DNA of 64,000 nucleotides, from IMG/VR virus record IMGVR_UViG_3300047157_000171; one strand, given 5' to 3'. A model generated the notes under the pieces. The model was not told where the DNA came from. It worked only from the letters and a program-made list of their open reading frames with translations, and ran no database searches. A program made the translations under genes and the position numbers. Of the stretch, positions 2,380 through 58,508 are shown piece after piece. Source of the stretch: a virus. Position 1 is the stretch's first letter, and the number at the start of each line of letters is the position of its first letter.

Positions 2380-3288
2380 ATGGCAACAGGTAATTACGGA
2401 ATAAAGAGACCAGCAGATGTTACACCTTCCGATGTGGAGGTTTTTTTACATTATGCTTCAGATAGAGATTCGAATACGGCACCAGTGTTTAAAAAATTAA
2501 ATGCTAGTGATATTTTGTCACCTGTTTTCCATAACGATGTGACAGGTGGTACTCAAGAAACAGAGATGTTAGGGGGTTTATATAACTTAACACTTGAAAG
2601 TGGAGAATTTTCAGATTTAGGGGTGTATAACTTATACATCAGACCAAAAGAAATAAGAACGAATATCACAGATTGTGGTGTGTTATTAACATTACCAAAC
2701 GTTAAGGGGTTGATATTTGACGTATCAAGTATACCATCAGAAGATAGAGGTAAATTTGTGAATAACGGATTGGTTGGGTACAGAATTGAATACTTAGACG
2801 ATAGTGGTAAAAAGATTAGTAACTTCTATAGAGTTATAACGAGTAGTTTTTTCTGTGAACCGATTGTTGCTAATTTAACAAATACAAATCAAAAATCTTT
2901 AAGATATAGATATACGAGTAATCCTACGAGTTTAGTATATTGTACTGTAACTCCGAGTACTGCTCCAACAAATAATCCAAATGAGATTCCATTTATTGGT
3001 GAACCAAACCAAAATGTTATCTTAACCAATACTTACTTTAACCCTGTACACATGGAGGTTGAGTTAGTAGAACACGACGAACAAACATTAGCATACGCAT
3101 TGTATGGTAATCAAACTAAGTCAATTGAAGACGGAATATACACGATTTACGATAAAGAGAATAATATATACAGACAGTATAACTTATTTGAAATACGTGA
3201 TGAAATTAATAATAAATTATATGAGGTCCGTGAAGATAGAATTGATGACATCGACACGTCCAAAGGTTTTGATAATATAGCGAATTAA
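2380..3288 (+). CDS. Hypothetical structural protein (tail/baseplate region)
   Basis: 302 aa; TATTTATA upstream; TAATG-coupled to the 2112-aa gene. Confidence 0.55.
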   Translation: MATGNYGIKRPADVTPSDVEVFLHYASDRDSNTAPVFKKLNASDILSPVFHNDVTGGTQETEMLGGLYNLTLESGEFSDLGVYNLYIRPKEIRTNITDCGVLLTLPNVKGLIFDVSSIPSEDRGKFVNNGLVGYRIEYLDDSGKKISNFYRVITSSFFCEPIVANLTNTNQKSLRYRYTSNPTSLVYCTVTPSTAPTNNPNEIPFIGEPNQNVILTNTYFNPVHMEVELVEHDEQTLAYALYGNQTKSIEDGIYTIYDKENNIYRQYNLFEIRDEINNKLYEVREDRIDDIDTSKGFDNIAN

Positions 3289-6200: not shown

Positions 6201-9200
6201 ATAAAGACGACTAGTCCAGAGGTTGAAGGGTTAAGTGCTTTTGAGATTGAAGGATTTAAAGATGGTGAGTTTTGTTATGATTGTCATAACGAGATAAAGT
6301 TAATAACCAATAGTTACTGTGGAGAATGTTTCGATATAGATTCGTTAGAAATAGGGATGAAAGTTATTATTAATGAGGGTGAAGGACAAGATGACTGTAA
6401 AGACAGATGTTTTGTGTTGGAGAACATTCCGTTTAGTATTGACCAAAGTCAGTTCGGAGGTGTTCACTATGACGTAAATTACCCTGACCATCATATAGAT
6501 ATGTTAGACCCGAGGGGTACTGTATTTTTAACTGAAAAGTTTGAAGTTGTTAAATGCGTGGACTACGATAAAGTATATCATGGGACGTATCAGTATGTCG
6601 GTGGGTTAGACACAATAGACAGGTTTCCTGTGTATAAACACATAACTGAAGACATTTATCTTTCGTGTTATCCTGATGCGCCTGAATCGGTTAATGGTGA
6701 CTTTATGTTTACTGAAGGACCTAAAGGTTCGTATACTCAGATATATGGTAAATTATCGGATAAAAACTTATTAGACTTCACAAACGTATTCACACATTCA
6801 TTAGAATGGGAAATTGACGACTGTATAACAGTTGATGATTTAGAAGAAGACCAAAATGTTATCAGACACCGTTATGCTACGGGTGATAGTATTGGTATTT
6901 GTGATAGAGTTAATGACGATGGGTTTGATTATGTGAAAATATGGTTACATGGTGGGACTTTTGAAGCTCAAGACGGTACCACTTTACCTTATGATATGTT
7001 CTTTGATTGTAAAGAAGATTTGGTTGAGGGAGAAACTATATGGTATGACGAAGCTGGTGATGTTTTTATAGTTAAGATTAAATCAGGAGAGAATAGGTTG
7101 ATACATGCTTATGACCAATCGGGTGCTCCGATACACATATATTTAAAAGAAAGAAACACCGTGTTGGTGGGTCTTGATTTTGAAACGGACTTAGAAACTA
7201 TCGACGAATATGGTGGTTACGGTCAATATGGTGGTTACGGAGGTTATGGTAGTTACACTTCTTACGGTGGTTACGGTCAATATGGTGGTTACGGAGGATA
7301 TGGTGGTTACGGAGGGTATTTCTGTTACGGAAACGAATATCTTTTTTATTCAAATATAAATCCTTATTGTATTGGTAGACTTGATTATGAGATAAGACCT
7401 GAGTGTCAAGGTTATTTAACGGATACTGAATTTTATAGGGTTAAAGGAGAAACAATACCATACGAAATAACTATTGATGAGGTAATTGTCGGTGAAAATG
7501 TTGAAACAGTTAGGGTTCAGGATATTAATGTCGGTGATTTAATTATCGCTGCGAGTCCTAATTACGGAGAAATGGATTTCTGTGATTACTCGGAGTTCCA
7601 ATATGGGAATGAAAGTATTGTGTGTAATTACACAAAAAACATTAAAATGGTTCCTGTGATGAGTACATCATGTGGGAGAATATATAAATACATTAATATT
7701 AATGAAGGTAGGGTTAAAGTGGAATTCCATCATAATATTTTAGTATTAGAGGATTTAAACAAAACGAATTCAAACGACTTATTAACAACGTGTTATACTG
7801 AAGCACCTACAAAACCAATTGGAACGATTTACAACTTAGACGGGACACCATCACAGGTGTTTTATGATAATGAATATCAGATAGTTGGTAAACCGGCTAA
7901 TGAGATTAGTATCGGTGATTATATAATAACAACAGAAGAGTGTGGTGTAATTGAAGTAAAGAGTTTGGTTTATGATGATTACTGTGATGAGGGTCTGTTT
8001 AATGACAAGTATCAAATTAAGTTTGATGAGGATATGTTTGCGTGGTATAGACCTAAAGACGGATATGATACAATATATATCAACGATAAATGTGTTCCTT
8101 ATTGTGAGTTAATATGTTGTGATGAAATAGAGATGTGTATTGACGACATAAGTATTAGTGGTATTTGTATTGACGATATAAGTTACGTTATTGGTGATGT
8201 ACCAACAACAACTACATCAACTACAGAGGAGGTTACAACAACCACAACTACTAAGGATAGACGTTACTACGACTACTTCAACGACAGAGGAGCCGTTACA
8301 ACAACCACAACTACTGAAAAAGACGTTACAACTACTACGACTACAGAAAAACCATGTGTTTGTTATAAAACAAACCCTTATGATGATAGAATGTTTGTGG
8401 TTTACAAAAATTGTGATGGAAATCAGATAACAATAAATAAAACATGTAACTCTACTATCTGTCAGGGGATTGAATTTTCAGCTACGGAAATATTGAGTGG
8501 ACAATCGGAAGTTTTTATTGTTGATTGTGAAGATAAAACAACAACTACTTCTACAACAGAAGAACCGACAACAACGACTAGTACGACTAAGGATATAACG
8601 ACAACGACTAGTACGACTAAGGATATAACGACAACGACTAGTACAACAGAAGAACCAACAACAACGACTAGTACGACAGAAGATAAGACGACTACCACTT
8701 CTACTACAGAGGATAAGACAACAACCACTTCTACGACTAAGGATATAACAACAACCACTTCTACAACAGAAGAGCCGACAACGACTACCTCTACGACTAA
8801 GGATAGGACTACTACTACTTCTACAACGGAAGAACCGACAACAACGACTAGTACAACAGAGGATATGACAACGACTACTTCTACAACAGAAGTTGAACCG
8901 TTATGTGTTTGTATAGAATTTACACATATTTCTACGGGACCTGGAAGACATATTGGGTATTATGACGATTGTGATGGTATTCAGAGAGAGATAATGGTAA
9001 ACCCATTAGAAAGTGAAAAAGTGTGTGGTACCGGGTTAAATATATCAACATCAGATGGTAAATTAATTTACCAAGTAGGTGAGGAATGTGACATTTATAG
9101 AAAATGTCCAAGCGATGAAACGACAACAACGACAAGTTTTAGAGAACCTGACGACCCAACAACAACCACTTCTACAACAGAAGAGCCGACAACAACAACT

Positions 9201-9626
9201 TCAACCACTATGGGTGACGGTGGTTCGGGTCCGATTACAACGACAACAACTAGAGGAAATAATGAAACAACTTATTGTGTTAATTTTGATTGGTTAGGTT
9301 CTCAGGTAATACCACAATCCTCAGGTAAGGCATATGCTGATAGTACAACAGTTAGTCAAATAACTGAATTCTATTTATATGATGTCGCTTGTGGAAATGG
9401 TGATTTTGATACATTAGCAAACGCATTAACCACGGGTTATGGTCTTACGGTTAGTAGAGGTAATTCGACGGCTAACTTTACTCTTAATTCGTTGACAAAT
9501 AATAGTCAAATGAACTATTGGACTTTAGGGGTTACTTATAATTCAGGAACAGTAACACAGGCGCCCGAAGGGTTACCATGTCATCAACCAAATAACTTCT
9601 GTTTCACACAACCAATACTAAGTTAA
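3288..9626 (+). CDS. Large baseplate-wedge/tail protein with YGG repeat, Hint-like region, Cys modules and Thr-rich tracts
   Basis: 2112 aa; LFKSKGTRKPLRFLLSFIG resembles P2 gpI-like baseplate motifs; low-complexity, Cys-rich C-terminal half. Confidence 0.65.
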   Translation: MANIRFPSNGSGTFSDGLVGGQNTEGNDFTQKNFSEEGTPVVRDTKSFTTSDFSKPISLEDLNSEESIKEVSKLFDQSLKIKFNTEKGSKDLFGSAFLRAKVAVENIANTFPASLRVFKTTTDAQTVDTAYDVVNNLQFNTTTFKIPLRAIRNPLGIEYSNIGLKVFDGQYDSDRNFAKEFTKYVLLFSGVEYKIKKVLLPEDRYNGELSITVHGKPFTGSTQEEFYIKLNDILFEKKFELMDDFEQLLLDRENVPLYEAKFKVPKETSDGSLYFGDEKIKWELSDDFNIVVEGDKFERYLEKLFETCEVIDNYKANLIARFLSTASLQEFDTEGQKVKKIFQLYGRFFDDVKKFIDNIAYMNNVTYDKINNVPDLLLKNLAGLLGLDVITSITDRNIEEYLYKKKDSQFDGLTKGKTPFETDIEIYRRIILNSAYLFKSKGTRKPLRFLLSFIGAPESFVEINEYVYKVINRIDYDKFSEKLDNVIDGEWFESDVDFKTIKVWSEIKEEWLDKSDFQKKYPNVEIDVLGYLENGQLPDGENHGDAYILDKELISVEVQKSGGVYNVDDYPIERVGTSDNSIPKTPTITNDYFFQKGAGWFERTDSHKSVSVLDEERSDLTTSPKTIKTKFEDFTYGEKFYDRYKNFPNFDDGWELKADIDNKKSDSDTNKFILNRKNVDIFLNPGRAVLFDFVRTYQKHSLSYSGVLLNNLTFAQFSEYGFWNGVEVGKGKYGKKYWDLIELFKDYYESGLGKAYDYDLTYAYLNKISTYWIRLVEQFIPATTLWFTGEKVENHNLHRPKFNWEEPCRNDVMSLDLSLAKTLYETLIDSLKKYKNIPDCYERLYRYGNWYLQVKINDKIYQIGGKEWTHFFTSTESDKMGSCNLDNAQPGSPDTCPQYDNPIYMLCDFETYVTCYPDECKDFVTTIVQMLSQISKDIYRDEIADKVSDCDFLCDNDDGLTYVADTVFGSTIKTTSPEVEGLSAFEIEGFKDGEFCYDCHNEIKLITNSYCGECFDIDSLEIGMKVIINEGEGQDDCKDRCFVLENIPFSIDQSQFGGVHYDVNYPDHHIDMLDPRGTVFLTEKFEVVKCVDYDKVYHGTYQYVGGLDTIDRFPVYKHITEDIYLSCYPDAPESVNGDFMFTEGPKGSYTQIYGKLSDKNLLDFTNVFTHSLEWEIDDCITVDDLEEDQNVIRHRYATGDSIGICDRVNDDGFDYVKIWLHGGTFEAQDGTTLPYDMFFDCKEDLVEGETIWYDEAGDVFIVKIKSGENRLIHAYDQSGAPIHIYLKERNTVLVGLDFETDLETIDEYGGYGQYGGYGGYGSYTSYGGYGQYGGYGGYGGYGGYFCYGNEYLFYSNINPYCIGRLDYEIRPECQGYLTDTEFYRVKGETIPYEITIDEVIVGENVETVRVQDINVGDLIIAASPNYGEMDFCDYSEFQYGNESIVCNYTKNIKMVPVMSTSCGRIYKYININEGRVKVEFHHNILVLEDLNKTNSNDLLTTCYTEAPTKPIGTIYNLDGTPSQVFYDNEYQIVGKPANEISIGDYIITTEECGVIEVKSLVYDDYCDEGLFNDKYQIKFDEDMFAWYRPKDGYDTIYINDKCVPYCELICCDEIEMCIDDISISGICIDDISYVIGDVPTTTTSTTEEVTTTTTTKDRRYYDYFNDRGAVTTTTTTEKDVTTTTTTEKPCVCYKTNPYDDRMFVVYKNCDGNQITINKTCNSTICQGIEFSATEILSGQSEVFIVDCEDKTTTTSTTEEPTTTTSTTKDITTTTSTTKDITTTTSTTEEPTTTTSTTEDKTTTTSTTEDKTTTTSTTKDITTTTSTTEEPTTTTSTTKDRTTTTSTTEEPTTTTSTTEDMTTTTSTTEVEPLCVCIEFTHISTGPGRHIGYYDDCDGIQREIMVNPLESEKVCGTGLNISTSDGKLIYQVGEECDIYRKCPSDETTTTTSFREPDDPTTTTSTTEEPTTTTSTTMGDGGSGPITTTTTRGNNETTYCVNFDWLGSQVIPQSSGKAYADSTTVSQITEFYLYDVACGNGDFDTLANALTTGYGLTVSRGNSTANFTLNSLTNNSQMNYWTLGVTYNSGTVTQAPEGLPCHQPNNFCFTQPILS
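7209..7331 (+). repeat. (YGG)n coding microrepeat
   Basis: YGGYGQYGGYGGYGSYTSYGGYGQYGGYGGYGGYGGYFCYG; near-identical 42-nt blocks at 7209 and 7263. Confidence 0.95.
8205..9255 (+). repeat. Mucin-like Thr-rich tandem repeats, 30-nt/10-aa unit (TTTTSTTEEP, TTTTSTTKDI)
   Basis: About a dozen units at 8540-8890 plus shorter tracts on both sides. Confidence 0.95.
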
Positions 9627-9691
9627 ATAAAAATATAAAGACAATAAGTAAAAGATTTAATAGAATAAATATATTTATATAATAAAAGAAA

Positions 9692-10786
9692 ATGGGAAAT
9701 ATTAACGATACTAATAACAGGTTAGCCACAGACACTCCAGATACTACTACAACTACTACCACAGGTGGAGTTTCGGTTACGTTTAGTAGTCCTAGTAATG
9801 GACCGTGTAATTTAACATTTACCCCTGATTGTGGTGGGGTAACGACTAATAATAATACATCTAGGGTTGCTACTGACACGCCTGATACACCTACCGTGAC
9901 AATACTGGGTATTAATTTCCCTTACACTTTTTATCCTTCAGAACATGGAGTTGATGATATTTTTGGTACATATACGTTTAATTGTGGTGGTTGTGAATAT
10001 ATAAGAAACATAGAGAGAGTGTGTAACGATAATGATATATCATATACAGTATTAGGTTCTTCTGTTACGACAACAACAACAGAGGATGTTACAACAACTA
10101 GTACGACTGAAGATGTAACAACGACTAGTACGACTGAAGATGTAACAACGACTAGTACAACTGAAGATGTAACGACTACAACCACTTCGTCAGGTTGTAA
10201 AAATTATCTGTTAAAAGCTGATGACCAATTTACGGAGTTTAGATATATTGCGTGTGGTGAAACAAACTACACAACTGTAGGTCTTAATCGAGACACTAGT
10301 AGAGTGGTATGTTCAGAAAATATACCAGTAGTTACTGTTGGTTCGGATAATGCTGAAGTGATTGATACGGGTATAAGTTGTACTGAAGACCCAACAACAA
10401 CGACTAGTACGACTACGGAGATAGAGACGACTCGTTTTTATATTTCAGCAGGAAAACCAATACTTGGGGTGTATGAAGAAGGAACGAACGAAGGTACTGG
10501 GTTCTGTGACAACACATACTTATTATCGGGTGCCCTTTGGGTGGTTGGTAATTTAACACAGACTTCATCTTTACTTAATAAAACAGTATACACCAATAGT
10601 GATATGGATACTTTCATACCTGTCGGATATTATTACGTACACGGAAGTCCGGGTTACCCTAATGGTACCTATGGAGGAGCGGTACCAGGTCAGCAACACT
10701 TAGCAATAAGGGTAGACGCGAATGGTCTTGTTGGTACTGTTGTTAGTCATAATTGTGGAGACCAAGGAGGAGGACAAGACCTTTAA
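9692..10786 (+). CDS. Thr-rich, Cys-module virion-associated protein (paralog of 10807-12114)
   Basis: 364 aa; TTTSTTEDV repeats; N-terminal block shared with the next gene. Confidence 0.65.
   Translation: MGNINDTNNRLATDTPDTTTTTTTGGVSVTFSSPSNGPCNLTFTPDCGGVTTNNNTSRVATDTPDTPTVTILGINFPYTFYPSEHGVDDIFGTYTFNCGGCEYIRNIERVCNDNDISYTVLGSSVTTTTTEDVTTTSTTEDVTTTSTTEDVTTTSTTEDVTTTTTSSGCKNYLLKADDQFTEFRYIACGETNYTTVGLNRDTSRVVCSENIPVVTVGSDNAEVIDTGISCTEDPTTTTSTTTEIETTRFYISAGKPILGVYEEGTNEGTGFCDNTYLLSGALWVVGNLTQTSSLLNKTVYTNSDMDTFIPVGYYYVHGSPGYPNGTYGGAVPGQQHLAIRVDANGLVGTVVSHNCGDQGGGQDL
10066..10190 (+). repeat. 27-nt/9-aa tandem repeat (TTTSTTEDV)
   Basis: About four copies of acaacgactagtacgactgaagatgta. Confidence 0.95.
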
Positions 10787-10806
10787 AAATATAAAAAATA
10801 CGAGAT

Positions 10807-12114
10807 ATGTCTAATATAAACGAAAAAGAAAACAATAACGGTAGTATCAATAATACGTCTATTGATAGTAATGGGAATGGTGATTTAGCTGCTACTGATA
10901 CTACAACAGTTAATGGGAATGGTAGTTTAGACGCTACTGATACTACTACAGTACAACCTTCAACTCAAACGGTTAGGTTTGAACGAATGAGTAATGGTAA
11001 ATGTGATTTAACATTTACCCCAACGTCTACAACATCTACGACTAATAATACGTCTAAGGCCGCTACGGATACGACTGATACGACAACTACACAACCTAAC
11101 AGTGTTAGTATCCCCAACGTGTCTTTTCCTTACGAGTTTGACCCTTTAGACCATGGGTTTAATAGTGTAAATGGGACATATACGTTTGATTGTTGTGGAT
11201 GTCCTTATGTGTTCGTTATCGATGGTGAAGATAATTCTGTAACAACTACTACTACTGAAGAGGTTACAACAACGACAACTAGTAAAGACACTGACCCAAT
11301 AACGACCACAACTACTACTGAAGAGGTTACAACAACGACAACGACTGAAGATGTGTGTGATAACTGTACTACGGTTAGGGTTCGTAAAAATCCGTTATCG
11401 ACTAATGTTAGTTTTGATTATATAGATTGTGATAACAATAGTCAGTCTTATACCTTCCAAACTAAGGTTGCGGTTATTGATTTATGTGTGTGTACAGGAA
11501 GTATACCAAGTAGTGATGACTATACTGTTGAATTTATCGAAGAATGTACAACAGGATTACCGGTATTAACCTGCGATTTATTACAATTCACAGTTAATGA
11601 TGGGGAGAATGGAGAACTTGTTAGTTTTAATAATGGAAGTGGATTATTTATACCGGCTCAGGTAACACCTATTCAATATAATTTAGGTGTTGGAACCTAT
11701 ACTGTTAGTGTTACAGTACCAGATGGATATAGTAACGCAGGTGATACTTTAGAATGTGTGAGTGATGAGGTTATTGTATCTCAAGGTGGTGGTGATACCA
11801 CGACAACATCGACAAAGGGTTCATCTAATGCGTTTTGTGCTAAGGTAACATATGGACCTAACAGTCCGAATACGCTACAAACGCCACAGGGTGGAGAGAT
11901 ATTGGAATTTCAAATAAACCAGATGTTTACATATTCTAACGAAGATGGGGGAGGATTCTTTAGAATATGTACTGACAATGGAGCGTTCTATGTGGTAGAG
12001 AATAATTCGGTGAGAGTAATTCAAGAGAGTGACGATATTGATATTGAATATAATACGGATGATAGATGTACTACTGATGGTTCTGGAAATATTGACTGTG
12101 TACAAAGAGTTTAA
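10807..12114 (+). CDS. Thr-rich, Cys-module virion-associated protein (paralog of 9692-10786)
   Basis: 435 aa; SNGKCDLTFTP...FPYEFDPLDHG...GTYTFDCCGC matches SNGPCNLTFTP...FPYTFYPSEHG...GTYTFNCGGC. Confidence 0.65.
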   Translation: MSNINEKENNNGSINNTSIDSNGNGDLAATDTTTVNGNGSLDATDTTTVQPSTQTVRFERMSNGKCDLTFTPTSTTSTTNNTSKAATDTTDTTTTQPNSVSIPNVSFPYEFDPLDHGFNSVNGTYTFDCCGCPYVFVIDGEDNSVTTTTTEEVTTTTTSKDTDPITTTTTTEEVTTTTTTEDVCDNCTTVRVRKNPLSTNVSFDYIDCDNNSQSYTFQTKVAVIDLCVCTGSIPSSDDYTVEFIEECTTGLPVLTCDLLQFTVNDGENGELVSFNNGSGLFIPAQVTPIQYNLGVGTYTVSVTVPDGYSNAGDTLECVSDEVIVSQGGGDTTTTSTKGSSNAFCAKVTYGPNSPNTLQTPQGGEILEFQINQMFTYSNEDGGGFFRICTDNGAFYVVENNSVRVIQESDDIDIEYNTDDRCTTDGSGNIDCVQRV

Positions 12115-12173
12115 GTGTATACTTAAAGATAGTTTTTATTACATTAATGGTATAATCACATAAAAAATATTGT

Positions 12174-13106
12174 ATGGTAACTATATGTTCACAACCCGAT
12201 AATATATATTTTCATTGGCAAAATCTAATACAGTTCTATAACTTTAAAAAGTTAGGAATTTTAAAAGACCATAGGGCGGTTTTTCTAGTTAGTCAAGGAA
12301 AATCTCCTTCTAAGTTTGTTTTAGAATTTAAAAAACAATATCCTAAAAACGTTTTCATATATATGGACGATAGGATACAAAAACACTACATCCCAACCAT
12401 TAAAATACACGGGGTTGTTAAGTACTTAACGACTGACAGGAAACAACAAGATTTAATGTTAATTGATTCGGACATTATCCTTAACGAAAAAATTGATTAT
12501 AGTAAATTCACAGAAAATAATACGGTATATTGTAGTAACACAAAAGGGTATTTAGGGTATCAATATCTAAAGACTAAGGGGGATGAAATTGTTACAGACA
12601 TGTGTCACTTTATGGGTATTACATTGGACGATGTAAAAGACCAAAATGATAATTCAGGGGGTGCTCAATTATATTATAAAGGTGTTGATGGATTATTAGA
12701 GTATTTTAAAGAGGTTGAGGACAAAGCCCCTAAATTATATGATTTGATGGTTAAACATCCAACGTATAATGATTATAAACCAACAATACAGGCTTGGACA
12801 TCAGAGATGTGGGCAGTGTTATGGTTACTGTGGAAACGAGACGTTAAAACTGAAATACATTCTGAATTAGATTTCAGATGGGCTACTGATGATATTTCTT
12901 TATGGAAGACAAATAAGATACTACATATGGCTGGTGTAACCGCAGGTATGAAAGACGTTTTCTTTAAGGGTGGTTTTATCACAAAGACACCATTTAATAC
13001 TGATTTTGATTATATTAGGGAGAATTCTATCACTAAAATCTATATAGAAGAAATGGAAGAATTAAAGAAAGACCAATCTTTCAAAAACTTAATAGAACTC
13101 CTTTAA
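12174..13106 (+). CDS. SERGT1/HPAT-like (GT96/GT95) peptide O-glycosyltransferase
   Basis: Motifs YFHWQ, IKIHGVVKYL, LIDSDII, SGG and WTSEMWAV occur in the order of plant SERGT1 YFDWQ, NKPVGVLYWL, ILDADMI, VGG and WISEMYGY. Confidence 0.65.
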   Translation: MVTICSQPDNIYFHWQNLIQFYNFKKLGILKDHRAVFLVSQGKSPSKFVLEFKKQYPKNVFIYMDDRIQKHYIPTIKIHGVVKYLTTDRKQQDLMLIDSDIILNEKIDYSKFTENNTVYCSNTKGYLGYQYLKTKGDEIVTDMCHFMGITLDDVKDQNDNSGGAQLYYKGVDGLLEYFKEVEDKAPKLYDLMVKHPTYNDYKPTIQAWTSEMWAVLWLLWKRDVKTEIHSELDFRWATDDISLWKTNKILHMAGVTAGMKDVFFKGGFITKTPFNTDFDYIRENSITKIYIEEMEELKKDQSFKNLIELL

Positions 13107-13158
13107 TTTTCATTCACTTTATTTTTTAATTTAATACTTTTACGTATACAATAGAGCT

Positions 13159-14190
13159 ATGCGAAGACGTAAAAGTAAAATATTTGACATATATATAACC
13201 ACAGGTGCTGGTAACACGGTCGGTGGTGGTTCAGACGTATGGGTTAATAATTGGTTAAAGTTAATACCTAAACATTTGGATATTAAACCAATTCTACTTA
13301 TTGATAATTATAGATTTCAAGGGTTTGAAGAGGACTCAATACCAATAGAACATATTTTCTATAATGAAAGACCTGATGAATCTAAAAGATTATTACAGGA
13401 ATGTCGACACATTCACTTCTTACATAATCATTACACTAAAAGACCTCACTTATGGAAGTATAGGTTTAAGTTTAAGAGTATTGCGGTTCACGCATATGCC
13501 AGAGAGATAGTTGATTCTTATAAGGAGTTAGGATTCTCAAGAGATTCTGTCCCTTTTTTATGGAATGTTGAATGGCAAGACGAATTAATCCGTGAGTGTG
13601 AAACTAAATATTGGGTCGGTTCACAAAGAGGTTTAGTTAACGATATTTTTAACGACTGTATAACAATACCAAATTATTATGAGTTTATATGGAATAAGGA
13701 ATATTTTCATAGTAATGTGGTTGGGTTTGCTGCAAGGGCAGAAACAAGAAAAGCGATTCACTTCTTGGAGAATGTTAGGTCCAATGCTTTTACATCAAGT
13801 AATGGTGTTAAGATATGGGAGAAAAACACTAAAATGAAGTTCAACAATACTAAAATCATTGAGTATAATCCAAACTTAACAGATGAATATTATAATAGTA
13901 GTCTGTTCGGTATATTCCATGGTGCTTATGTTAAAGAACCATTTGGGTATTCAATTCTCCAAGCCGTTGATGCTGGTAAATTACCTATTATATCTAAAGG
14001 GTGGTGTCCAGAGTTTAACTATCCGTATCGAGCGTCGAGTAAAGAAGAGTTTGAAAATATGGTTAAGTTAATACAAAACACAAATAAAGAAACAAGGAAA
14101 AATATCTTTAATTCGGCAAAAGAATTTTTAAAGAAATTTGACAATAAAGACCATTGGGTTGAAAGAATGAAAACAATTTATAATGAATAG
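13159..14190 (+). CDS. GT-B fold glycosyltransferase (GT4-like)
   Basis: N-terminal GGGSDVW loop; EPFGYSILQAVDAGKLPII matches the GT4 EPFG-x-LEA motif. Confidence 0.75.
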   Translation: MRRRKSKIFDIYITTGAGNTVGGGSDVWVNNWLKLIPKHLDIKPILLIDNYRFQGFEEDSIPIEHIFYNERPDESKRLLQECRHIHFLHNHYTKRPHLWKYRFKFKSIAVHAYAREIVDSYKELGFSRDSVPFLWNVEWQDELIRECETKYWVGSQRGLVNDIFNDCITIPNYYEFIWNKEYFHSNVVGFAARAETRKAIHFLENVRSNAFTSSNGVKIWEKNTKMKFNNTKIIEYNPNLTDEYYNSSLFGIFHGAYVKEPFGYSILQAVDAGKLPIISKGWCPEFNYPYRASSKEEFENMVKLIQNTNKETRKNIFNSAKEFLKKFDNKDHWVERMKTIYNE

Positions 14191-15136
14191 AAAATTAATA
14201 GTTTCACGAATGTGGACAAAACGAGGTATACAACAGTACTTCTCATTACTCCAAATATCTAAAGAATTTTGGGACTTTGAAATAGAAGCACATATTCTAA
14301 TTGACGATTGGACACACGATGATGATTGGACTAAGGAGATAGAAAAACTTAATAACCCACATAGAGAAGGGTTTCCGATGAGTGTGGAGTTTTACACCAA
14401 AGAAGAGTTAAAACAATGGTACCATAGTAATAATATTATAGATAAGAGTGTCTTTGATAACATGAAAGGATTTTTACATATTTATCATCTTCTGTTGTAT
14501 TTTTATTTATATGTTGAAAAAGGTATCGATTACTTAGTGTCTTATGATGATGATATCGTGTTTAATAAAAAGGTTAGTCCTGAGTTAAATGAAATCGATG
14601 GTTTAATAGCTAATAAGACACCATTTGTTATTGACGAAGAGTACTTCCCTATGTCTGACAAAAGTATGTTTGTTGGCTTATCTAATTATTTTAACCGTGA
14701 TTTAACACCTGATTATTATAGAAATAATGTAAGGGGTGTTGGTGCCAATGCTGGTTTTATGGGTATAGAAACCTCATCGATATTTAGTTCTTTTAAAGAC
14801 AATTTTATGGGATTATTATCTTTGTTTGATTTCAAATCGCCGAACTTAAAATCTATTGATGAACCTTACCATTATACTGATAAGGTTTTATTCGATACTC
14901 AAGAACAAAGTTTTATGAGTATTATGTTACACTGTTTTGCGACAAAAGAATTGTTTAGGTTAGGTGGGGCATTAGGGTATTTCTTTGATACTCCAATACA
15001 AGAGGCGGTAAATAAGTCTAAATTAATACATTTCACAGGAGACAGAAAATACGACCCACTATTTCCAAAGATTATTATAGATTTTCTAAAGAAACACGGT
15101 CATAACAATATCACACCAGATTGGTTTTATTATTAA
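14183..15136 (+). CDS. GT-A fold glycosyltransferase (GT8-like)
   Basis: YDDDIVF (DxD), ANAGF, EQSF and a late LIHF. Confidence 0.6.
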   Translation: MNRKLIVSRMWTKRGIQQYFSLLQISKEFWDFEIEAHILIDDWTHDDDWTKEIEKLNNPHREGFPMSVEFYTKEELKQWYHSNNIIDKSVFDNMKGFLHIYHLLLYFYLYVEKGIDYLVSYDDDIVFNKKVSPELNEIDGLIANKTPFVIDEEYFPMSDKSMFVGLSNYFNRDLTPDYYRNNVRGVGANAGFMGIETSSIFSSFKDNFMGLLSLFDFKSPNLKSIDEPYHYTDKVLFDTQEQSFMSIMLHCFATKELFRLGGALGYFFDTPIQEAVNKSKLIHFTGDRKYDPLFPKIIIDFLKKHGHNNITPDWFYY

Positions 15137-15142
15137 ATAATT

Positions 15143-16252
15143 ATGTTGGAACCGTTATACAATAAAGAAATATTAGAAGAAGGTATTATTGAAGCATTAA
15201 GGCACATTGATGCTTTTGATGATATTGAAAAGGCGAAAGAATGTCTAAGAACCGCACTATCACCAAATGAAAAATGGGCGATTAATTTACTAAACTCGAG
15301 TGTTAGTGATAATATGAAATTCCACACAATGAATGGGTATAATTTACCGTTTTTTGAAAATGACAGTAATATACCAAAAAGAGCGAAAAATGCTAGATTA
15401 TGTGTCGTATATCAAGTATGGGGTAATCATAACTATTTAAAGTTTTTATACCTATCAATTTTATCACAATTGGCGTATACGGATATTTTAGATTTTGATA
15501 TTAAAATATTTTTAGGAAAAGGATTTGTTAATGATGTAGGTGCGTCATTAATCGACCGATTATTACCTGAAGGGTCTATTATACCTGTTAATGATGGGTT
15601 ATCTTTAAAATATGGATTAACTTCCCATCCACATTTACAGAACTACGACGTAGTTTCTGTTGTTGATACAGACGCATTTTGGTACCACCCTAAAGGTGAG
15701 AAAACTAACGTATACCAAAAAATGTTAGATTTGTATGACTCAGGTTTTGATGGTCTTATTATGGCACCAGACCCTGACTTGGCAAGTTCAGTGTTTTGGC
15801 AAAGAAGAGATACGTTAAACACCAATATACCGGCTGAACATTATAAAAACTATTTCTACAGAAATGCGAATACGGATGAAAAAAGACTTACTGATTTTGT
15901 AGACCATGATAAGAATTGGTTCCTATCATGTCTATTTGTATACGGTAAAAACCAATTTAGAGAACCAGGTTATGGTAAATACGCATTGACCTGTTTATAT
16001 GATGAATTACTTTGTGATGAAACAGTTTGGATGATGTGGGGTCTCGGTCACGATTACGAAATCGAGAACATGAATAATACAGGGTTTTTACGATGGGTTG
16101 GTGCGAATGATTTCGATAGGTATTGGAGCAATGAGAAAAATAGTGAAGATGTTTTGTCTTATATTCATCCTGTACAGGGAGACCATTGTTTTAATATGAA
16201 TTTAATTAAGTTATATGATAAAATAGTAGAAGATTACAAATTAAGTAGATAA
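15143..16252 (+). CDS. Putative GT-A fold glycosyltransferase
   Basis: VVDTDAFW (DxD), CDETVW, YIHP; lies within the GT cluster. Confidence 0.5.
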   Translation: MLEPLYNKEILEEGIIEALRHIDAFDDIEKAKECLRTALSPNEKWAINLLNSSVSDNMKFHTMNGYNLPFFENDSNIPKRAKNARLCVVYQVWGNHNYLKFLYLSILSQLAYTDILDFDIKIFLGKGFVNDVGASLIDRLLPEGSIIPVNDGLSLKYGLTSHPHLQNYDVVSVVDTDAFWYHPKGEKTNVYQKMLDLYDSGFDGLIMAPDPDLASSVFWQRRDTLNTNIPAEHYKNYFYRNANTDEKRLTDFVDHDKNWFLSCLFVYGKNQFREPGYGKYALTCLYDELLCDETVWMMWGLGHDYEIENMNNTGFLRWVGANDFDRYWSNEKNSEDVLSYIHPVQGDHCFNMNLIKLYDKIVEDYKLSR

Positions 16253-17175
16253 TGAAAAGACCCGATTATACTGTAATGTATACTTTACACGTCATGCCAG
16301 AAGAAATACAAGATGTTGGTAGGATAATAAAAGACTTTGAAATATCGACAAAAGAAAACTCAAATGTGGGTGTTACCTTATATATTGATTTGAATTTTTC
16401 AGATGTCTATTATGATTGGACAAATTCTAAAATGACAAAAGAAACTTTTTATAATTTATTTCAAAACTTCTTAACACATTCTAGAAAGAATTTAAATATA
16501 ATACACAATGTAAGAGATACGGGGCATTGGGGTGTTAATTCAACCAGAAGAAACGTGATTAACGAATACAAAGATACGTTTGATTATATTGGTTTTATTG
16601 ATTGTGACATATTTTTTGACCCAGCTGCGATTCAGTATGTGTATAAAACATTAGAAAAAGAGCCGGGAGAATTTATTGTATTCTCTGGTTTATTACCTAA
16701 GATGTGGAACGAACACTTTGATGGTCTCACACATAAAAAATTTAAGAATGTGACTGACAGGTCATTTCCTTTTAAGATTAACCCTTTGAGTGTTTATGGG
16801 TTTCACCAAACTCAGAAAAATGAGGTTGGATATACTTCTGACATTATGATTGGGGGAGGATGGTTTAACGTTTTTTCTACAACGATTTTCGATTACGTAA
16901 CCATACCGACAGAATTAGGGGTTTATGGTATTGATGACCATTGGATTCAAGAATGTTGTCGTTTTCTTAATAAATCAGGGTGGGATATTAAACAATGTTA
17001 TAATAATAAATTTTTAATATTAGAGAACCACGGTCGTAAGTTTAATATGCCAGAGCCTTTTATAGTTAAAAAAATGGTAAATGGGGGTAAATTTGAATAT
17101 GAAAAAAACGCAAAACAAAATTACGAAAGATTATTTAGTGAGTATAAACAAAGTATTATAAGTAAGTATTTCTAA
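16252..17175 (+). CDS. GT2-like glycosyltransferase
   Basis: GVNSTRRNVI...YIGFIDCDIFF; YGIDD acceptor-region motif. Confidence 0.65.
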   Translation: MKRPDYTVMYTLHVMPEEIQDVGRIIKDFEISTKENSNVGVTLYIDLNFSDVYYDWTNSKMTKETFYNLFQNFLTHSRKNLNIIHNVRDTGHWGVNSTRRNVINEYKDTFDYIGFIDCDIFFDPAAIQYVYKTLEKEPGEFIVFSGLLPKMWNEHFDGLTHKKFKNVTDRSFPFKINPLSVYGFHQTQKNEVGYTSDIMIGGGWFNVFSTTIFDYVTIPTELGVYGIDDHWIQECCRFLNKSGWDIKQCYNNKFLILENHGRKFNMPEPFIVKKMVNGGKFEYEKNAKQNYERLFSEYKQSIISKYF

Positions 17176-17177
17176 TC

Positions 17178-18680
17178 ATGAAGTTATTTTTTACTTTTTA
17201 TAGTAAAGAAAGTATTCCTAAGTTACACCACTTCTTCAAACACTACAGAAACTTAGGGGTGACTAATTTTTATGCGATATATCATGCGTATGAAGAATAC
17301 AGTAAAGATGTTTTAGATTATGTGATGGAAAACGCCATGGTTGTTAAGATATGGGACGGGGTCTTTAACGAACATATTAAAGTAAAACACATAAATGATG
17401 CGAGGTTAAAATTCTCAAGTTATGGTGAGTGGTCGTTTACTGTTGATTGTGATGAATTTATAGATATTAGTATTAATGACTTAAATAAGGTGGTTAATAG
17501 TGATGCGAACTATGTGAAGTTTAGTATGATAGACAGGGTATCTAAACCATCACTTAAAGAGGTTACGATTGAAGAAGACATTGGAATAACGTTTCCATAT
17601 TATTCTTTTATTACATATAGTTTATTAGAGGGGGCGATATCTAAAGTGCCTCTATCTGTTCGTGAAGTCATTATTGGTTTAGGTTATCACGATGTCATTG
17701 GAGGGCAAGAACAAGTGGTTAAGTTGAAAAAACATCATTTAAATGGGTATGTTAATCACTTTAAATGGGATAGTGACCTTATCTATACTATGCACGATAG
17801 AGTGACTAATAGGTTAATAGATGACGGAAGTGCTGATGATTACAAAGGAGAATGTGAAGTTGCTTTGTCTTTGGATTATGATAATGTGATTACTTATGAC
17901 AAACCTTTAGAAATGAAATTATTGTTTATTGTTTGGTCCCTTCAGGATTATAATATGTTAAAGCAGTTTTTCATTCATTATAGAAACTTAGGGGTTACCA
18001 AATTCTATTGTATTTTTCATACTTACGGTATGGAAGATAATTTTATTTATGACTTTGTTAAACAAAACGCTGAGATTGTACATCATTGGGATGAGAAATA
18101 TACGACAGAGTGGGAATGTAAACTAAAGAATAAATATAAGAGAGAAATATGTGATGATGAGAACGAATGGGTGTGGTGTGTAGATGCTGACGAATTTGTT
18201 GATGTCTCACCAGACTTTGTAAGGGAAGTTATAGGTAGTGACTCAAATTACGTTAATGGGTGGATGGTAGATAGGTTTTCTGAAGATGGATTAATAGTCC
18301 CATTGGATGATAATATGTTTAAACAGTTCCCAATTAGGACTTACTATACACGGTTTAAATTAAATGGTTCTGCGTCTAAAATTCCACTAACTCGTTCTTA
18401 TGTTATAATTGGTGTGGGTCATCATGTTGTGTTAAATGAAATGTATGATTTTGGTGTAAAGGATGAGAGAGTCTTAATTTCTTATAATGGTAATGAGGAT
18501 GATTGGATTGAAGTTGCTCATATTAAATGGCATTATCAATTGTTAGAGGAGATTTATAATAAATTCACTAAAACAATGAATTTATGTCAATACTCGGCAA
18601 GGGAGATGGGTGTTTTTGTATTGGATTATTGTTATAAGAAAAAACCAATAACTGAAATTATTAAAGACGTGAGAATATGA
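17178..18680 (+). CDS. Tandem two-domain glycosyltransferase (Glyco_tranf_2_4/GT92-like)
   Basis: Internal duplication: HYRNLGVTNFY...VDCDEFI and HYRNLGVTKFY...VDADEFV. Confidence 0.7.
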   Translation: MKLFFTFYSKESIPKLHHFFKHYRNLGVTNFYAIYHAYEEYSKDVLDYVMENAMVVKIWDGVFNEHIKVKHINDARLKFSSYGEWSFTVDCDEFIDISINDLNKVVNSDANYVKFSMIDRVSKPSLKEVTIEEDIGITFPYYSFITYSLLEGAISKVPLSVREVIIGLGYHDVIGGQEQVVKLKKHHLNGYVNHFKWDSDLIYTMHDRVTNRLIDDGSADDYKGECEVALSLDYDNVITYDKPLEMKLLFIVWSLQDYNMLKQFFIHYRNLGVTKFYCIFHTYGMEDNFIYDFVKQNAEIVHHWDEKYTTEWECKLKNKYKREICDDENEWVWCVDADEFVDVSPDFVREVIGSDSNYVNGWMVDRFSEDGLIVPLDDNMFKQFPIRTYYTRFKLNGSASKIPLTRSYVIIGVGHHVVLNEMYDFGVKDERVLISYNGNEDDWIEVAHIKWHYQLLEEIYNKFTKTMNLCQYSAREMGVFVLDYCYKKKPITEIIKDVRI

Positions 18681-20128
18681 TAGGGATACATTCGGTTTTT
18701 AGTAACGAGAATAGGGGGTTTATTTATAACGTGAATACTGATATTAGTACGGTTGAGTTATATACGTGGGTTTATTCGATATTGACGTGGAAAAGAGATG
18801 GGCATCCATTATATCTATATTGTGATGATAAAATTAATGAATTTGTCACCAAGTACGGATTCGGACATTTATATGATGAGATAAGGATTAGAAATTATGA
18901 TGATGATATTCACGAATGTTTTTGGTCGTACAATAAAATACGAGTAATAGAAGAATTTGGGGAACCTGTTTGTTTATTTGATGTCGATACGTTTTTTAGA
19001 AACACTGAATTTACTAAGTTACAATATGATATGATAACATATCATTATGAATTATGGGATTCAGAGTTAAAAGATAAAATGTTTAACAGTAAAGATAGTT
19101 TAAAAAACTTAAGTTTCTATCAACCTGTGGATGACAGTGTTGAGATTGTTAATGGTAGTTTATTGATTTTTAATAGTTATGATTTAAAAACAGAATTTTT
19201 ACGTAACGCTAAAGAGGTTGTTGATACCATAAAGACTATAGAGTATGAAAGTCAATTTGAATATGATTCGTATACTATCTTTATGGAACAGGTTAACTTA
19301 GGTTATTTAAATAATAAATATCACTGTGGTAAAGTGTCTAAAAGAAATGAATGGGGAGACTATAGGTTTAATGGTGACGAACCATTTGTACATTTAGGTC
19401 ATAATAAAGAGAGATTGGCTCATGGTAATCCACAGACGAAGGAAAGATACGTCCATATTATTAAGGAGAAGATTATTGAGTTAGGTTATCCTGAGTTTGA
19501 AAAGTTATTCACTCTAACAACATTTGAAGGGGATAAGACTCAAAATTCCTTAATACCTCAAAGGGTAAAACCATTGGCTAGAAATATGGGGAATAAGATA
19601 AATTCTGAGTTATTCACTAAATGGTATGGTGATAATATAGATATAATAACTGATAATCGATTTGATATTGCAATATGGGGTTCTATATTGGGTAATGATA
19701 TTGATTTAATAATATCAACATCTGAAGGGGTTAATATAAGTGATAAAGACTTAGAAGAATTTATGTTACTATTACATAGGTCAGGGAATTATATTGATAT
19801 TACTGTTGAGGTGTTATATACCAACAATATTAACTATTTCAGAGAATTTAGAATGGAAAATTCTCAAAAAGTGAAAGAAGATATTCTTATTGGGTTTGTT
19901 TCTGAATCGGATTATGAACCAAACGGTGAGTTAAGAACGGTGGGTAAACTAAAGTTTTATGAAGGACCATTTAACGATGCTTACTATAAATCAACAAATA
20001 AACATGATGAAGTTCTATTTATAGATTCGGTAAAAGATATAAAAAACAACGATGGATATACACATTTTTCATCAGAGGTTTATAATACCATATATGAAAG
20101 GTTTGGAATTTTCAGTATGTTAGGCTGA
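18677..20128 (+). CDS. Putative nucleotide-diphospho-sugar transferase with a C-terminal extension
   Basis: FWSYNKI...VCLFDVDTFF (DxD), NGSLL, EQ, VHLG. Confidence 0.55.
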   Translation: MIGIHSVFSNENRGFIYNVNTDISTVELYTWVYSILTWKRDGHPLYLYCDDKINEFVTKYGFGHLYDEIRIRNYDDDIHECFWSYNKIRVIEEFGEPVCLFDVDTFFRNTEFTKLQYDMITYHYELWDSELKDKMFNSKDSLKNLSFYQPVDDSVEIVNGSLLIFNSYDLKTEFLRNAKEVVDTIKTIEYESQFEYDSYTIFMEQVNLGYLNNKYHCGKVSKRNEWGDYRFNGDEPFVHLGHNKERLAHGNPQTKERYVHIIKEKIIELGYPEFEKLFTLTTFEGDKTQNSLIPQRVKPLARNMGNKINSELFTKWYGDNIDIITDNRFDIAIWGSILGNDIDLIISTSEGVNISDKDLEEFMLLLHRSGNYIDITVEVLYTNNINYFREFRMENSQKVKEDILIGFVSESDYEPNGELRTVGKLKFYEGPFNDAYYKSTNKHDEVLFIDSVKDIKNNDGYTHFSSEVYNTIYERFGIFSMLG

Positions 20129-20166
20129 AAAAATATTAACTGAATATTTATAATAAAAGAATATAG

Positions 20167-58421: not shown

Positions 58422-58508
58422 TTTTTTTTTAATAAATGTATATAAATTATACTACATTATAAAGGAGGTGATATTTATAAAAGTATTAAAACAGTAAAAA
58501 GATAATAA

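Follow-up and report, generated by a model that had tools for sequence, protein, structure and literature searches.

Genes at the locus

The window, a stretch of 64,000 nucleotides from an uncultured marine T4-like phage (IMG/VR record IMGVR_UViG_3300047157_000171), carries three consecutive genes with threonine (Thr) tracts at 3288-12114, followed directly by seven tightly packed, co-directional ORFs at 12174-20128. The first of the tract genes (3288-9626, + strand) encodes a protein of 2112 residues, which is presumed to be an appendage of the tail or baseplate and is proposed as a glycan acceptor. Its N-terminal ~1000 residues correspond to a conserved ~1010-residue protein encoded upstream of ORF1 homologs at 51 related viral loci; its C-terminal half is lineage-specific and consists of a Gly-Tyr repeat and then Cys-rich modules with Thr tandem tracts between them. 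There are 20 runs of four or more Thr or Ser (T/S) between residues 1640 and 1990. At the DNA level the Thr tracts are tandem repeats with periods of 27-90 nt, the first of which begins at 8205. The repeats at 8205-8892 (+ strand; periods 30, 61 and 90 nt) encode decapeptides of the type TTTTSTTE(E/D)x within the 2112-residue gene, and their copy number is unlike that of L002, a relative with 94-99% identity.

The second and third tract genes, at 9692-10786 and 10807-12114 (both + strand), encode proposed acceptors of 364 residues (21% Thr) and 435 residues (18% Thr), which have an N-terminal Cys-containing module in common. Seven T/S runs are present in each, and the counts of 20, 7 and 7 bear out the sequence-only reading of three successive genes with long Thr/Ser tandem tracts. 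Downstream of the seven ORFs, a 703-residue protein (20167-22278, + strand) has a single run of seven Thr at residues 266-272, which is kept in L003; its C-terminus weakly resembles tail-collar fibres and its AF2 model is poor (pLDDT 53). A fifth Thr-tract protein had been placed at 58509, and the gene at 58509-61079 (+ strand) indeed encodes 856 residues with Thr runs at residues 665-710, a distal candidate acceptor.

Neither for the tract proteins nor for most of the glycosyltransferase candidates did Pfam, PHROG or NCBIfam return a usable match, and the 2112-residue protein matches no Pfam or PHROG family. The tract proteins show neither a membrane segment nor a signal peptide. The tract genes had been taken as structural; no family or structure search marks the Thr-tract proteins of the window as virion components, and they are here presumed to be tail-associated or virion proteins. 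The statement that structural genes resume after the cluster comes down to the 703-residue gene with its single Thr run, the only gene between the cluster and the replication genes. These begin 2 kb past the cluster, and a RuvC-like resolvase, a primase and SbcC come next.

A TATTTATA box at 9672-9679 (+ strand), 13 nt before the start of the 364-residue gene, is a candidate late promoter for the unit 9692-20128. Further TATTTATA boxes lie at 20145-20152 (+ strand), 15 nt before the start of the 703-residue gene, and at 58472, preceding the 856-residue gene; overall, 8 of the 14 + strand boxes have a gene start at most 60 nt downstream of them (P 1.3e-7). No intergenic box was found inside 9692-20128, and + strand terminators do not exceed chance. 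Judged from these signals, the 364- and 435-residue tract genes and the seven enzymes appear to be co-transcribed from the late-type promoter at 9672.

The seven-gene cluster

ORF1 starts 59 nt after the end of the 435-residue gene, before which lie two further tract genes, so the description of glycosyltransferase (GT)-like genes that follow the tract genes at once and on the same strand is accurate. Three of the seven ORFs, with four GT domains together, are well-supported GTs. ORF1 (12174-13106, 310 residues) is a soluble enzyme of predicted GT-A, GT8-like fold that belongs to phrog_4417 and is the proposed initiating Thr O-glycosyltransferase. ORF3 (14183-15136, 317 residues) is GT8-related, with an invariant D122-D123-D124 and distant homologs (E 1e-16 to 1e-20) that carry the GT8 domain PF01501. 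ORF6 (17178-18680, 500 residues) is the only one with significant Pfam matches (Glyco_tranf_2_4 in two stretches, 2e-13; GT92, 5e-4); an internal duplication gives it two GT-A domains (Glyco_tranf_2_4/GT92-like), each with a DxDEF motif. All seven ORFs lie on the + strand.

The remaining four are weak leads. ORF2 (13159-14190, 343 residues) is a possible GT-B enzyme with a GT4-like C-terminal motif and a weak Glycos_transf_1 match (E 0.09). ORF4 (15143-16252, 369 residues) has an invariant D175-x-D177 and is a possible GT-A enzyme, with Atlas leads to GT6 and GT8 at 0.92-0.93. ORF5 (16252-17175, 307 residues) contains D117-C-D119 and is possibly a GT2-like GT-A enzyme, again with a weak match (Glycos_transf_2, E 0.01). 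ORF7 (18677-20128, 483 residues) consists of an N-terminal DUF6734 region of ~270 residues with an invariant D102-x-D104 and an unassigned C-terminal domain of ~200 residues. The original count of seven GT-like genes with eight GT domains holds for ORF1 by fold, ORF3 by homologs and ORF6 by Pfam, and is reduced to leads for ORF2, ORF4, ORF5 and ORF7.

Profile searches of ORF1-5, ORF7 and the 703-residue family against PDB sequences returned nothing (as for ORF2 and ORF5) or spurious TAL-effector and other matches. No paralogy is demonstrable among ORF1, ORF3, ORF4 and ORF7, because profile-profile comparison of their families was not significant. No membrane segment or signal peptide was found in any of the seven enzymes. 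The phage has no cultured close relative among the GenBank phages, since these gave no match when searched by megablast with the cluster or by tblastn with the 2112- and 703-residue proteins.

ORF1 and its family

ORF1 matches phrog_4417 ("unknown function") over its full length (E 4.7e-68; residues 1-298 on profile positions 1-292 of 293). A tblastn search of 50,697 phage records recovered relatives in 77 GenBank phages at 31-37% identity, and the identity to gp51 of phiFL1A is 37%. The family is very widespread, with members in at least 565 viral contigs (IMG/VR loci) and 149 bacterial genomes; a Chryseobacterium phage and aquatic contigs associated with Bacteroidota carry it as well.

The AF2 model of ORF1 (pLDDT 95.9) was matched by VIA to glycogenin with a Z score of 14.3 (rmsd 3.4 over 225 residues), followed by LgtC (14.0), Skp1 alpha-galactosyltransferase (13.4), GlyE (12.8) and A64R (11.8), and Foldseek agrees with a GT-A/GT8-like fold. 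The D98-S99-D100 motif is invariant in 29 homologs. ORF1 has no match to PF01501, and its best structural matches are GT8 enzymes. On the strength of the model, the soluble ORF1 is taken to be a GT-A enzyme of GT8-like fold that has a DxD motif. Assignment to the plant peptide O-glycosyltransferases HPAT/SERGT1 (GT95/GT96) was rejected, as ORF1 scored 14 bits (E 0.034) with PF23452, the HPAT family of Pfam, whose cut-off is 23.9. No more than 3 of the 29 members of the ORF1 family reached E 0.1 with it.

Association with poly-threonine tracts

A poly-Thr tract is encoded by the gene that immediately precedes the ORF1 homolog in all eight sampled GenBank phages, namely those of Enterococcus, Lactococcus, Staphylococcus, Clostridium, Lacticaseibacillus, Arcanobacterium and Chryseobacterium and a Lactobacillus myovirus. 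The carriers include a major tail protein, a capsid protein and a protease, among others. Six phages that have a tail-tube protein homologous to that of phiFL1A and no ORF1 homolog have neither a Thr tail nor any tract within ±12 kb.

A sample of 80 loci was kept from the IMG/VR set. Tracts are present at 72 of these 80 loci, at a density of 10.0 tract-bearing ORFs per 100 kb, compared with 6 of 118 random viral loci. The random control has a GC content of 0.47 compared with 0.33 at the ORF1 loci, and its small subset with GC below 0.40, with tracts at 2 of 23 loci, agrees with the full control. Tract frequency peaks at +1 kb (40%) and +4 kb (53%) from ORF1 and is ~2% per kb further out. Among bacterial genomes, tracts accompany ORF1 relatives at 29 of 30 Bacillota loci and at only 6 of 42 ORF1-like loci of Bacteroidota. 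The family is not exclusively tract-linked, because in soil Bacteroidota genera the ORF1-like domain is fused into proteins of 450-577 residues with no tract nearby.

Homologs of the 703-residue protein lie just downstream of ORF1 homologs at 58 of 79 viral loci, and 48 of those 58 carry Thr tracts. In the wider lineage of the window phage, these homologs have tracts in 35 of 44 cases if ORF1 is within 10 kb upstream and in none of 48 otherwise, an association that is phylogenetically clumped, with ~4 changes of each trait (tract, ORF1) on the family tree and few independent pairs. Taken together, these genome comparisons show a genetic tie between the ORF1 family and poly-Thr tracts on the virion proteins of unrelated phages. 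The co-occurrence of GTs and Thr tracts proposed as a check is thus found for the ORF1 family; ORF2-7 are tied to the tracts by position only.

A proposed cytoplasmic O-glycosylation system

The region probably codes for a cytoplasmic system of protein O-glycosylation, carried by the phage and directed at its own particle. A sugar coat on the particle is proposed because the tract genes adjoin sugar-transferring enzymes and the ORF1 family travels with poly-Thr tracts. The sequence-only reading had phage enzymes glycosylating their own Thr tracts in the cytoplasm, and the genomic association of the ORF1 family lends this strong comparative support. The tract proteins and the seven enzymes would be made together from the promoter at 9672, and ORF1 would add the first sugar, from a nucleotide sugar, to hydroxyl groups within the Thr tracts. 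Upstream, the C-terminal half of the 2112-residue protein and the 364- and 435-residue proteins would accept it; so would the 703-residue protein downstream and, probably, the 856-residue protein at 58509. ORF2-7 may lengthen the sugar of ORF1 into an oligosaccharide, and the extended linkers of the tail appendages would then bear a dense brush of glycans, for which stiffening, resistance to proteases or predators, and adhesion are conceivable roles.

The general O-glycosylation of Bacteroidota was considered as the source of the modification and rejected, since its motif is largely missing from the tracts and the tract proteins have no signal peptide or hydrophobic segment. In agreement with the earlier remark that the repeats mostly lack D-(S/T)-x, D-(S/T)-(A/I/L/V/M/T), a Bacteroidota motif that may not be that of the host, has no site among the 156 S/T of the tract region of the 2112-residue protein. 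The 364-residue protein has one such site, the 435-residue protein six and the 856-residue tract none.

A broader reading, which can be offered only tentatively, is that phrog_4417 reads poly-threonine as a 'glycosylate here' code and, in this phage, heads a cytoplasmic, seven-enzyme assembly line for oligosaccharide brushes on the mucin-like tandem repeats of the tail appendages, a bacterial-virus counterpart of mucins that arose independently of the eukaryotic GT27 and the mycobacteriophage systems. If the ORF1 family glycosylates poly-Thr, sugar-coated virions would be common in phages of Bacillota, Bacteroidota and marine hosts, and a poly-Thr tract together with an ORF1-family gene would be a simple sequence rule that predicts glycosylated virions, with a bearing on how virion masses, antigenicity, stability and adhesion are read. 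The pair would also provide a compact tag and enzyme with which glycoproteins could be made in the bacterial cytoplasm. Among the cases examined, that of the window phage is the most elaborate, and it could reveal the route of sugar-chain extension.

Alternative explanations

An unlikely alternative is that function is split: ORF1 places a single sugar or short chain on the tracts, and ORF2-7 are unrelated to this and remodel a host surface glycan (LPS, capsule, S-layer glycan) in the course of infection or make another glycoconjugate. Marine-phage multi-GT clusters are commonly taken as host-surface modifiers, and searches for homologs of ORF2-7 led only to close relatives of the window phage, with ORF1 standing alone in nearly all other lineages. 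Against such a split, no gene for a flippase, a polymerase, an undecaprenyl-phosphate priming transferase or the synthesis of sugar nucleotides was found in the window, and all seven cluster proteins are free of membrane segments. Moreover, ORF2-7 are wedged between ORF1 and the conserved 703-residue gene, which lie 0-3 kb apart in relatives, and Thr-tract sequence is far more abundant in the window phage than in those relatives.

It is improbable that the tracts are unmodified flexible or extended linkers, with ORF1 acting elsewhere and the neighbourhood reflecting modules that travel together. Thr- and Pro-rich inter-domain linkers are frequent in extracellular proteins, and the clumping on the 703-residue family tree and the tract-free ORF1-like domains of soil Bacteroidota would both be accommodated. 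The association nevertheless recurs in unrelated lineages and on unrelated carriers (tail tube, capsid, protease/scaffold, portal-region protein and tail appendages), and close tail-tube homologs are without a tract where the enzyme is absent. In addition, the stretches of 7-25 Thr with which capsid and tube subunits end join no domains.

It is very improbable that the cluster glycosylates the bases of the phage's DNA, a hypermodification by which T4 and other phages evade restriction. Phage GTs are classically DNA-modifying (PMC12619734), and the replication genes start close downstream of the cluster; yet no dCMP/dUMP hydroxymethylase or other base-modifying enzyme was found among the searched ORFs of the window, where the only gene of DNA modification detected codes for a Dam-like methyltransferase (47387). 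In siphophages, ORF1 homologs sit in the tail module, between tube and chaperone genes, and a role on DNA leaves the tie to Thr tracts unexplained.

That the cluster serves the collagen-like fibres of the phage (hydroxylysine-linked Gal-Glc) instead of the Thr tracts is scarcely credible: the gene at 34084-34824, which matches human ColGalT1 (E 1e-6) and so points to such a modification, itself speaks against this, as it gives the collagen hydroxylysine pathway its own galactosyltransferase, so that the cluster is not needed in a pathway complete without it (hydroxylase near 24 kb, galactosyltransferase near 34 kb, glucosyltransferase near 50 kb), and no match to GT25 or to the PLOD GT domain was obtained with any of the seven ORFs.

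Relation to known glycosylation systems

Streptococcal and staphylococcal serine-rich repeat adhesins (PsrP, GspB, Fap1) are glycosylated by GtfA/B together with Gtf3, GlyD, GlyE and others. Several clustered soluble GTs decorate very long Ser/Thr repeats in the cytoplasm, where the glycan is initiated and then extended step by step. The cytoplasmic O-glycosylation proposed here follows the same logic, and the ORF1 fold matches that of GlyE (Z 12.8), the GT8 enzyme of the pneumococcal serine-rich-repeat protein pathway (structure 5gvv). The adhesin system has features of its own in the GtfA/GtfB GT-B initiating pair, accessory Sec (aSec) export and Ser-rich dipeptide repeats; no GtfA/GtfB homologs or aSec genes were found among the ORFs searched, of which ORF2 gives a weak GT-B hint.

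As in animal mucins, dense Thr/Ser tandem repeats of variable copy number would form an O-glycan scaffold. In contrast with mucins, the window tracts lack proline and contain acidic spacers (E/D), and the process would be cytoplasmic, not in the Golgi. The label mucin-type, given to the system from the sequence, is not supported in the enzymatic sense: Pfam matched no GT27 catalytic domain or ricin-type lectin domain in any of the seven ORFs, and the ORF1 fold is GT8-like. In chlorovirus PBCV-1, as proposed here, viral cytoplasmic GT-A enzymes (A64R, PDB 2p6w) build glycans on a structural protein. Those glycans, unlike the ones proposed for the window, are N-linked at non-canonical sites of a capsid protein, in a eukaryotic virus and with no Thr tracts.

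To our knowledge, virion glycosylation by phage enzymes has been demonstrated in mycobacteriophages only, where the glycans shield particles from antibodies. For poly-threonine tails, or for glycosylated virions in phages other than mycobacteriophages, the literature searched held no relevant report. In Che8, Corndog and Myrna, phage GTs are described as acting in the host cytoplasm on virion proteins of the phage itself (Freeman et al. 2023, Cell Host Microbe 31:1216, as reported in PMC12619734 and PMC12363180). The system proposed here, read from genes alone, would likewise have phage-encoded GTs act on the phage's own virion proteins in the cytoplasm. The mycobacteriophage GTs belong to another enzyme family than ORF1, and the tblastn search with ORF1 as sole query against the 50,697 phage records returned no mycobacteriophage at E 1e-5. 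The Che8 capsid and tube proteins end in ...KTGS and ...SDGS, with no poly-Thr, unlike the window tracts. The acceptors in mycobacteriophages are the C-termini of capsid and tail-tube proteins, whereas those proposed in the window are long internal tandem tracts of large, tail-associated, non-capsid proteins; one to three clustered GT genes are present in mycobacteriophages compared with seven here.

The Firmicutes phages with phrog_4417 resemble mycobacteriophages in their proposed acceptors, the C-termini of capsid and tail-tube subunits, and resemble the window in having a full-length family member that adjoins Thr-tract genes. These phages, siphophages and myophages that infect Gram-positive hosts, have a single GT and short tags at the C-terminus, whereas the window presents a marine T4-like carrier with tandem mucin-like tracts of up to ~350 residues inside giant proteins and six extra GT-like genes.

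Threonine Tracts and Gene Layout

We moderately favor a mechanism in which phage-encoded enzymes would O-glycosylate the phage's own threonine tracts. The window has a GC content of ∼33%, and its + strand holds nearly all of the genes. The Thr/Ser tandem tracts that a sequence-only reading had placed in three consecutive genes are borne out by run counts, threonine content, and DNA repeats. The 2112-aa ORF (3288-9626, +) harbors 20 runs of at least four Thr/Ser from residue 1640 to 1990, and the 364-aa (9692-10786, +; 21% Thr) and 435-aa (10807-12114, +; 18% Thr) ORFs contain seven Thr/Ser runs each. The fifth tract protein of that reading, the 856-aa ORF (58509-61079, +), does carry Thr/Ser runs, at residues 665-710, and the 703-aa ORF (20167-22278, +) has one T7 run only. 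The tract DNA consists of tandem repeats with a period of 27-90 nt, the first of which begins at 8205. Repeat copy number is unlike that of a 94-99% identical relative, in which the 364-aa protein is 297 aa long and the count of decapeptide units in the large protein also differs.

The Thr-tract half of the 2112-aa protein is preceded by a Gly-Tyr repeat (GGYGQY/GGYGGY units; window 7150-7290, amino acids ∼1290-1335) that is kept, with variable length, in the relatives L002 and L003. In L003, a relative at 65% identity, the two tract genes give way to one gene for a 386-aa Thr-tract protein (L003:3703-4863) whose tracts flank an Ig-like module (DUF5011/HYR-type, by eye); the large protein has just one T7 run, at its end. 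Tract content therefore changes fast among relatives, while the glycosyltransferase (GT) cluster is retained.

The seven ORFs of this cluster (12174-20128, +) are tightly packed, with intergenic gaps of -8 to +59 nt. Structural genes were said to resume after the cluster, which is true of only one gene, the ORF at 20167, because it is followed by genes for a RuvC-like resolvase, a primase, and an SbcC-like nuclease.

The box TATTTATA, a candidate late promoter of the phage, occurs 14 times on the + strand, with eight occurrences placed no more than 60 nt before a gene start (P 1.3e-7); overall, the motif is not over-represented. Each of these eight, at 2357, 9672, 20145, 34827, 38185, 43056, 56052, and 58472 (all +), precedes a gene start by 5-36 nt; those at 9672, 20145, and 58472 precede the 364-aa, 703-aa, and 856-aa genes, respectively. 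Inside 9692-20128, no intergenic box is present and no + strand terminator stands out; from this arrangement, we infer that the interval fits one late-type transcription unit of two tract genes and seven enzymes.

Assignment of the Cluster Genes

Three of the seven genes described as GT-like are well supported, ORF1 (12174-13106), ORF3 (14183-15136), and ORF6 (17178-18680), and the remaining four are leads only. ORF6 is internally duplicated, and each copy is a Glyco_tranf_2_4/GT92-type domain (Pfam, 2e-13). ORF1 has no significant Pfam match, and its model, built with 29 homologs (pLDDT 95.9), has its best solved structure matches among GT8-type enzymes, namely glycogenin (Z 14.3), LgtC (14.0), Skp1 alpha-galactosyltransferase (13.4), UGGT (13.4), and GlyE (12.8), with Foldseek in agreement. 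D98-S99-D100 is invariant across the 29 homologs, and ORF1 is, by its predicted fold, a GT-A enzyme. ORF3 has an invariant DDD, and its distant homologs (E 1e-16 to 1e-20) bear PF01501 GT8.

Among the leads, ORF2 (13159-14190) and ORF5 (16252-17175) have weak matches to Glycos_transf_1 (E 0.09) and Glycos_transf_2 (E 0.01), respectively. ORF4 (15143-16252) has an invariant DxD and Atlas neighbours in the GT6/GT8/Nucleotid_trans clan at 0.92-0.93, and the N-terminal domain of ORF7 (18677-20128) is DUF6734 (21 of 29 homologs) with an invariant DxD. For the ORF7 C-terminal domain (residues ∼280-480), stand-alone homologs exist, P0097 and P0098 (E 1e-14 to 1e-18), and no family could be assigned.

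Linkage of ORF1 to Threonine Tracts

The match of ORF1 to phrog_4417, a family annotated as 'unknown function', spans the full length (4.7e-68), and 77 GenBank phages carry a relative by tblastn. Enterococcus phage phiFL1A has its homolog flanked by the genes for the tail chaperones and the major tail protein, the latter ending in a 23-residue Thr/Ser run. The co-occurrence of GTs and tracts proposed as a check is found across phages for the ORF1 family: a poly-Thr tract is present in the gene immediately upstream of the ORF1 homolog in all eight diverse carriers sampled (Enterococcus phiFL1A, Chryseobacterium MA9V-3, Lactococcus 1706, Staphylococcus SA2, Clostridium phiCTP1, Lactobacillus Semele, Lacticaseibacillus R3.3, and Arcanobacterium TPWB06); capsid, protease, or portal-region proteins carry extra C-terminal tracts. 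The paired control comprised six phages (three Streptococcus prophages, SPP1, phiJL-1, and cIP1) that lack an ORF1 homolog and encode a homolog of the phiFL1A tail-tube protein (40-60% identity). Their tube proteins stop at a common ...PGE(T/K)TG(D/E)... motif; none of the six has a Thr tail, nor any tract within 12 kb on either side.

The major tail protein of SA2 (L007:19649-19927) and of TPWB06 (L011:7660-7923) terminates in T8-9. A short ORF that overlaps in a different frame codes for a far longer Thr tract, suggesting that the tail-tube protein may exist in a tract-bearing form extended by frameshifting.

A broader survey of IMG/VR identified at least 565 loci with an ORF1 relative. Tracts are present in 72 of the 80 loci kept (10.0 tract-bearing ORFs per 100 kb), compared with 6 of 118 random viral loci fetched by an arbitrary 14-mer (2 of 23 in the subset with GC <0.40). 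Tracts occur in the +1 kb bin from the ORF1 relative in 40% of loci and in the +4 kb bin in 53%, over a background of ∼2% per kb beyond 6 kb. ORF1 relatives are also encoded by 149 species-representative bacterial genomes; among the 80 bacterial loci kept, tracts are found in 29 of 30 from Bacillota versus 6 of 42 from Bacteroidota. In soil Bacteroidota chromosomes (Pedobacter, Chitinophaga, and Elizabethkingia), the ORF1-like domain forms the N-terminal region of 450-577-aa fusion proteins, and poly-Thr tracts are absent within 6 kb (L299:6001-7710, L308:6001-7731, L352:6001-7353). The ORF1 family as a whole is therefore not exclusively tract-linked; the fused form looks like a different subfamily, and the stand-alone phage form is, as judged from its gene neighborhoods, tract-linked exclusively. 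In aquatic Bacteroidota-associated contigs (L298, L304, L310, and L333), a large tract protein ends just before the ORF1-family gene.

Within the lineage of the window, 58 of 79 IMG/VR loci selected through ORF1 share a gene order that opens with a ∼1010-aa protein homologous to the 2112-aa protein's N-terminal half and continues with ORF1 and a homolog of the 703-aa protein, often with a ∼450-aa protein bearing a tract near residue 100 between the last two. The gene at 20167 is therefore the evolutionarily conserved partner of ORF1, and 48 of these 58 homologs contain tracts. ORF2-7 homologs are confined to the close relatives L001-L003 and L012; these genes appear to have been inserted between ORF1 and the gene that formerly adjoined it, in a phage whose tracts have also become much larger. 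Sampling of the 703-aa family without reference to ORF1 gave 92 distinct proteins: 35 have ORF1 as well as a tract, 9 have ORF1 but lack a tract, none has a tract in the absence of ORF1, and 48 have neither. Each trait has changed only approximately four times on the tree, and there are not enough independent pairs for a test. The association inside this lineage is, on these gene contents, real but clumped, and unrelated phage groups are its independent replicates. A functional tie between ORF1 and the tracts is highly probable, and that tie is likely to be O-glycosylation.

A 362-kb viral contig (L015:9043-10912 and 10955-13585) carries two tandem ORF1 homologs, followed by a homolog of the 703-aa protein with an unbroken run of 28 threonines.

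Alternative Explanations

Extension of the same glycan by ORF2-7 is a tentative proposal; these genes may instead remodel the host surface. Against such remodelling, no flippase, polymerase, priming transferase, or sugar-nucleotide gene was seen, and all seven enzymes appear soluble, with no membrane-like segment or signal peptide in any of them. Glycosylation of phage DNA by the cluster is argued against by the placement of ORF1 homologs within siphophage tail modules and by the lack of a base hydroxymethylase among the window ORFs searched; the sole DNA-modification gene seen in the window encodes a Dam-like, D12-class N6-adenine DNA methyltransferase (47387-48265, +; Pfam 6.5e-21). Modification of the tract proteins by general O-glycosylation of a putative Bacteroidota host is argued against by their lack of a signal peptide and by the repeats, which, as the sequence-only reading held, mostly lack the D-(S/T)-x acceptor motif: D-(S/T)-(A/I/L/V/M/T) is nearly absent from the tracts. 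A role in collagen hydroxylysine glycosylation is rejected, since the same phage has a separate ColGalT1-like gene (34084-34824, +; 246 aa) whose residues 75-222 match human procollagen galactosyltransferase 1 (PDB 9evj and others; E 1.1e-6), supporting a putative pathway separate from the GT cluster.

Relation to Known Systems

For O-glycosylation of the tracts by phage enzymes, the nearest cellular analogue by mechanism is that of serine-rich-repeat adhesins, which are decorated in the cytoplasm by multiple GTs. GlyE of that system structurally matches ORF1; neither its initiating pair GtfA/B nor its accessory Sec genes were seen among the window ORFs searched. The earlier label 'mucin-type' holds for the mucin-like architecture of the substrate and for nothing further.

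Phage-encoded virion glycosylation is established in mycobacteriophages Che8, Corndog, and Myrna, according to the passages of PMC12619734 and PMC12363180 that cite Freeman et al. (2023). The proposed window system would work alike. Membership of the window system in the mycobacteriophage type is ruled out, as ORF1 has no mycobacteriophage homolog by tblastn against GenBank phages (E 1e-5) and the Che8 capsid and tube proteins carry short ...GS motifs at their ends rather than poly-Thr.

Among the papers searched, none described a poly-Thr tag plus GT-A module. The new elements are the ORF1 family in a marine T4-like phage, a Chryseobacterium phage, and aquatic Bacteroidota-associated contigs; internal mucin-like tandem tracts within giant, presumably tail-associated proteins; a conserved candidate acceptor family that is neither capsid nor tube, the 703-aa protein; and a seven-gene GT cluster, three genes of which are well supported as GTs.
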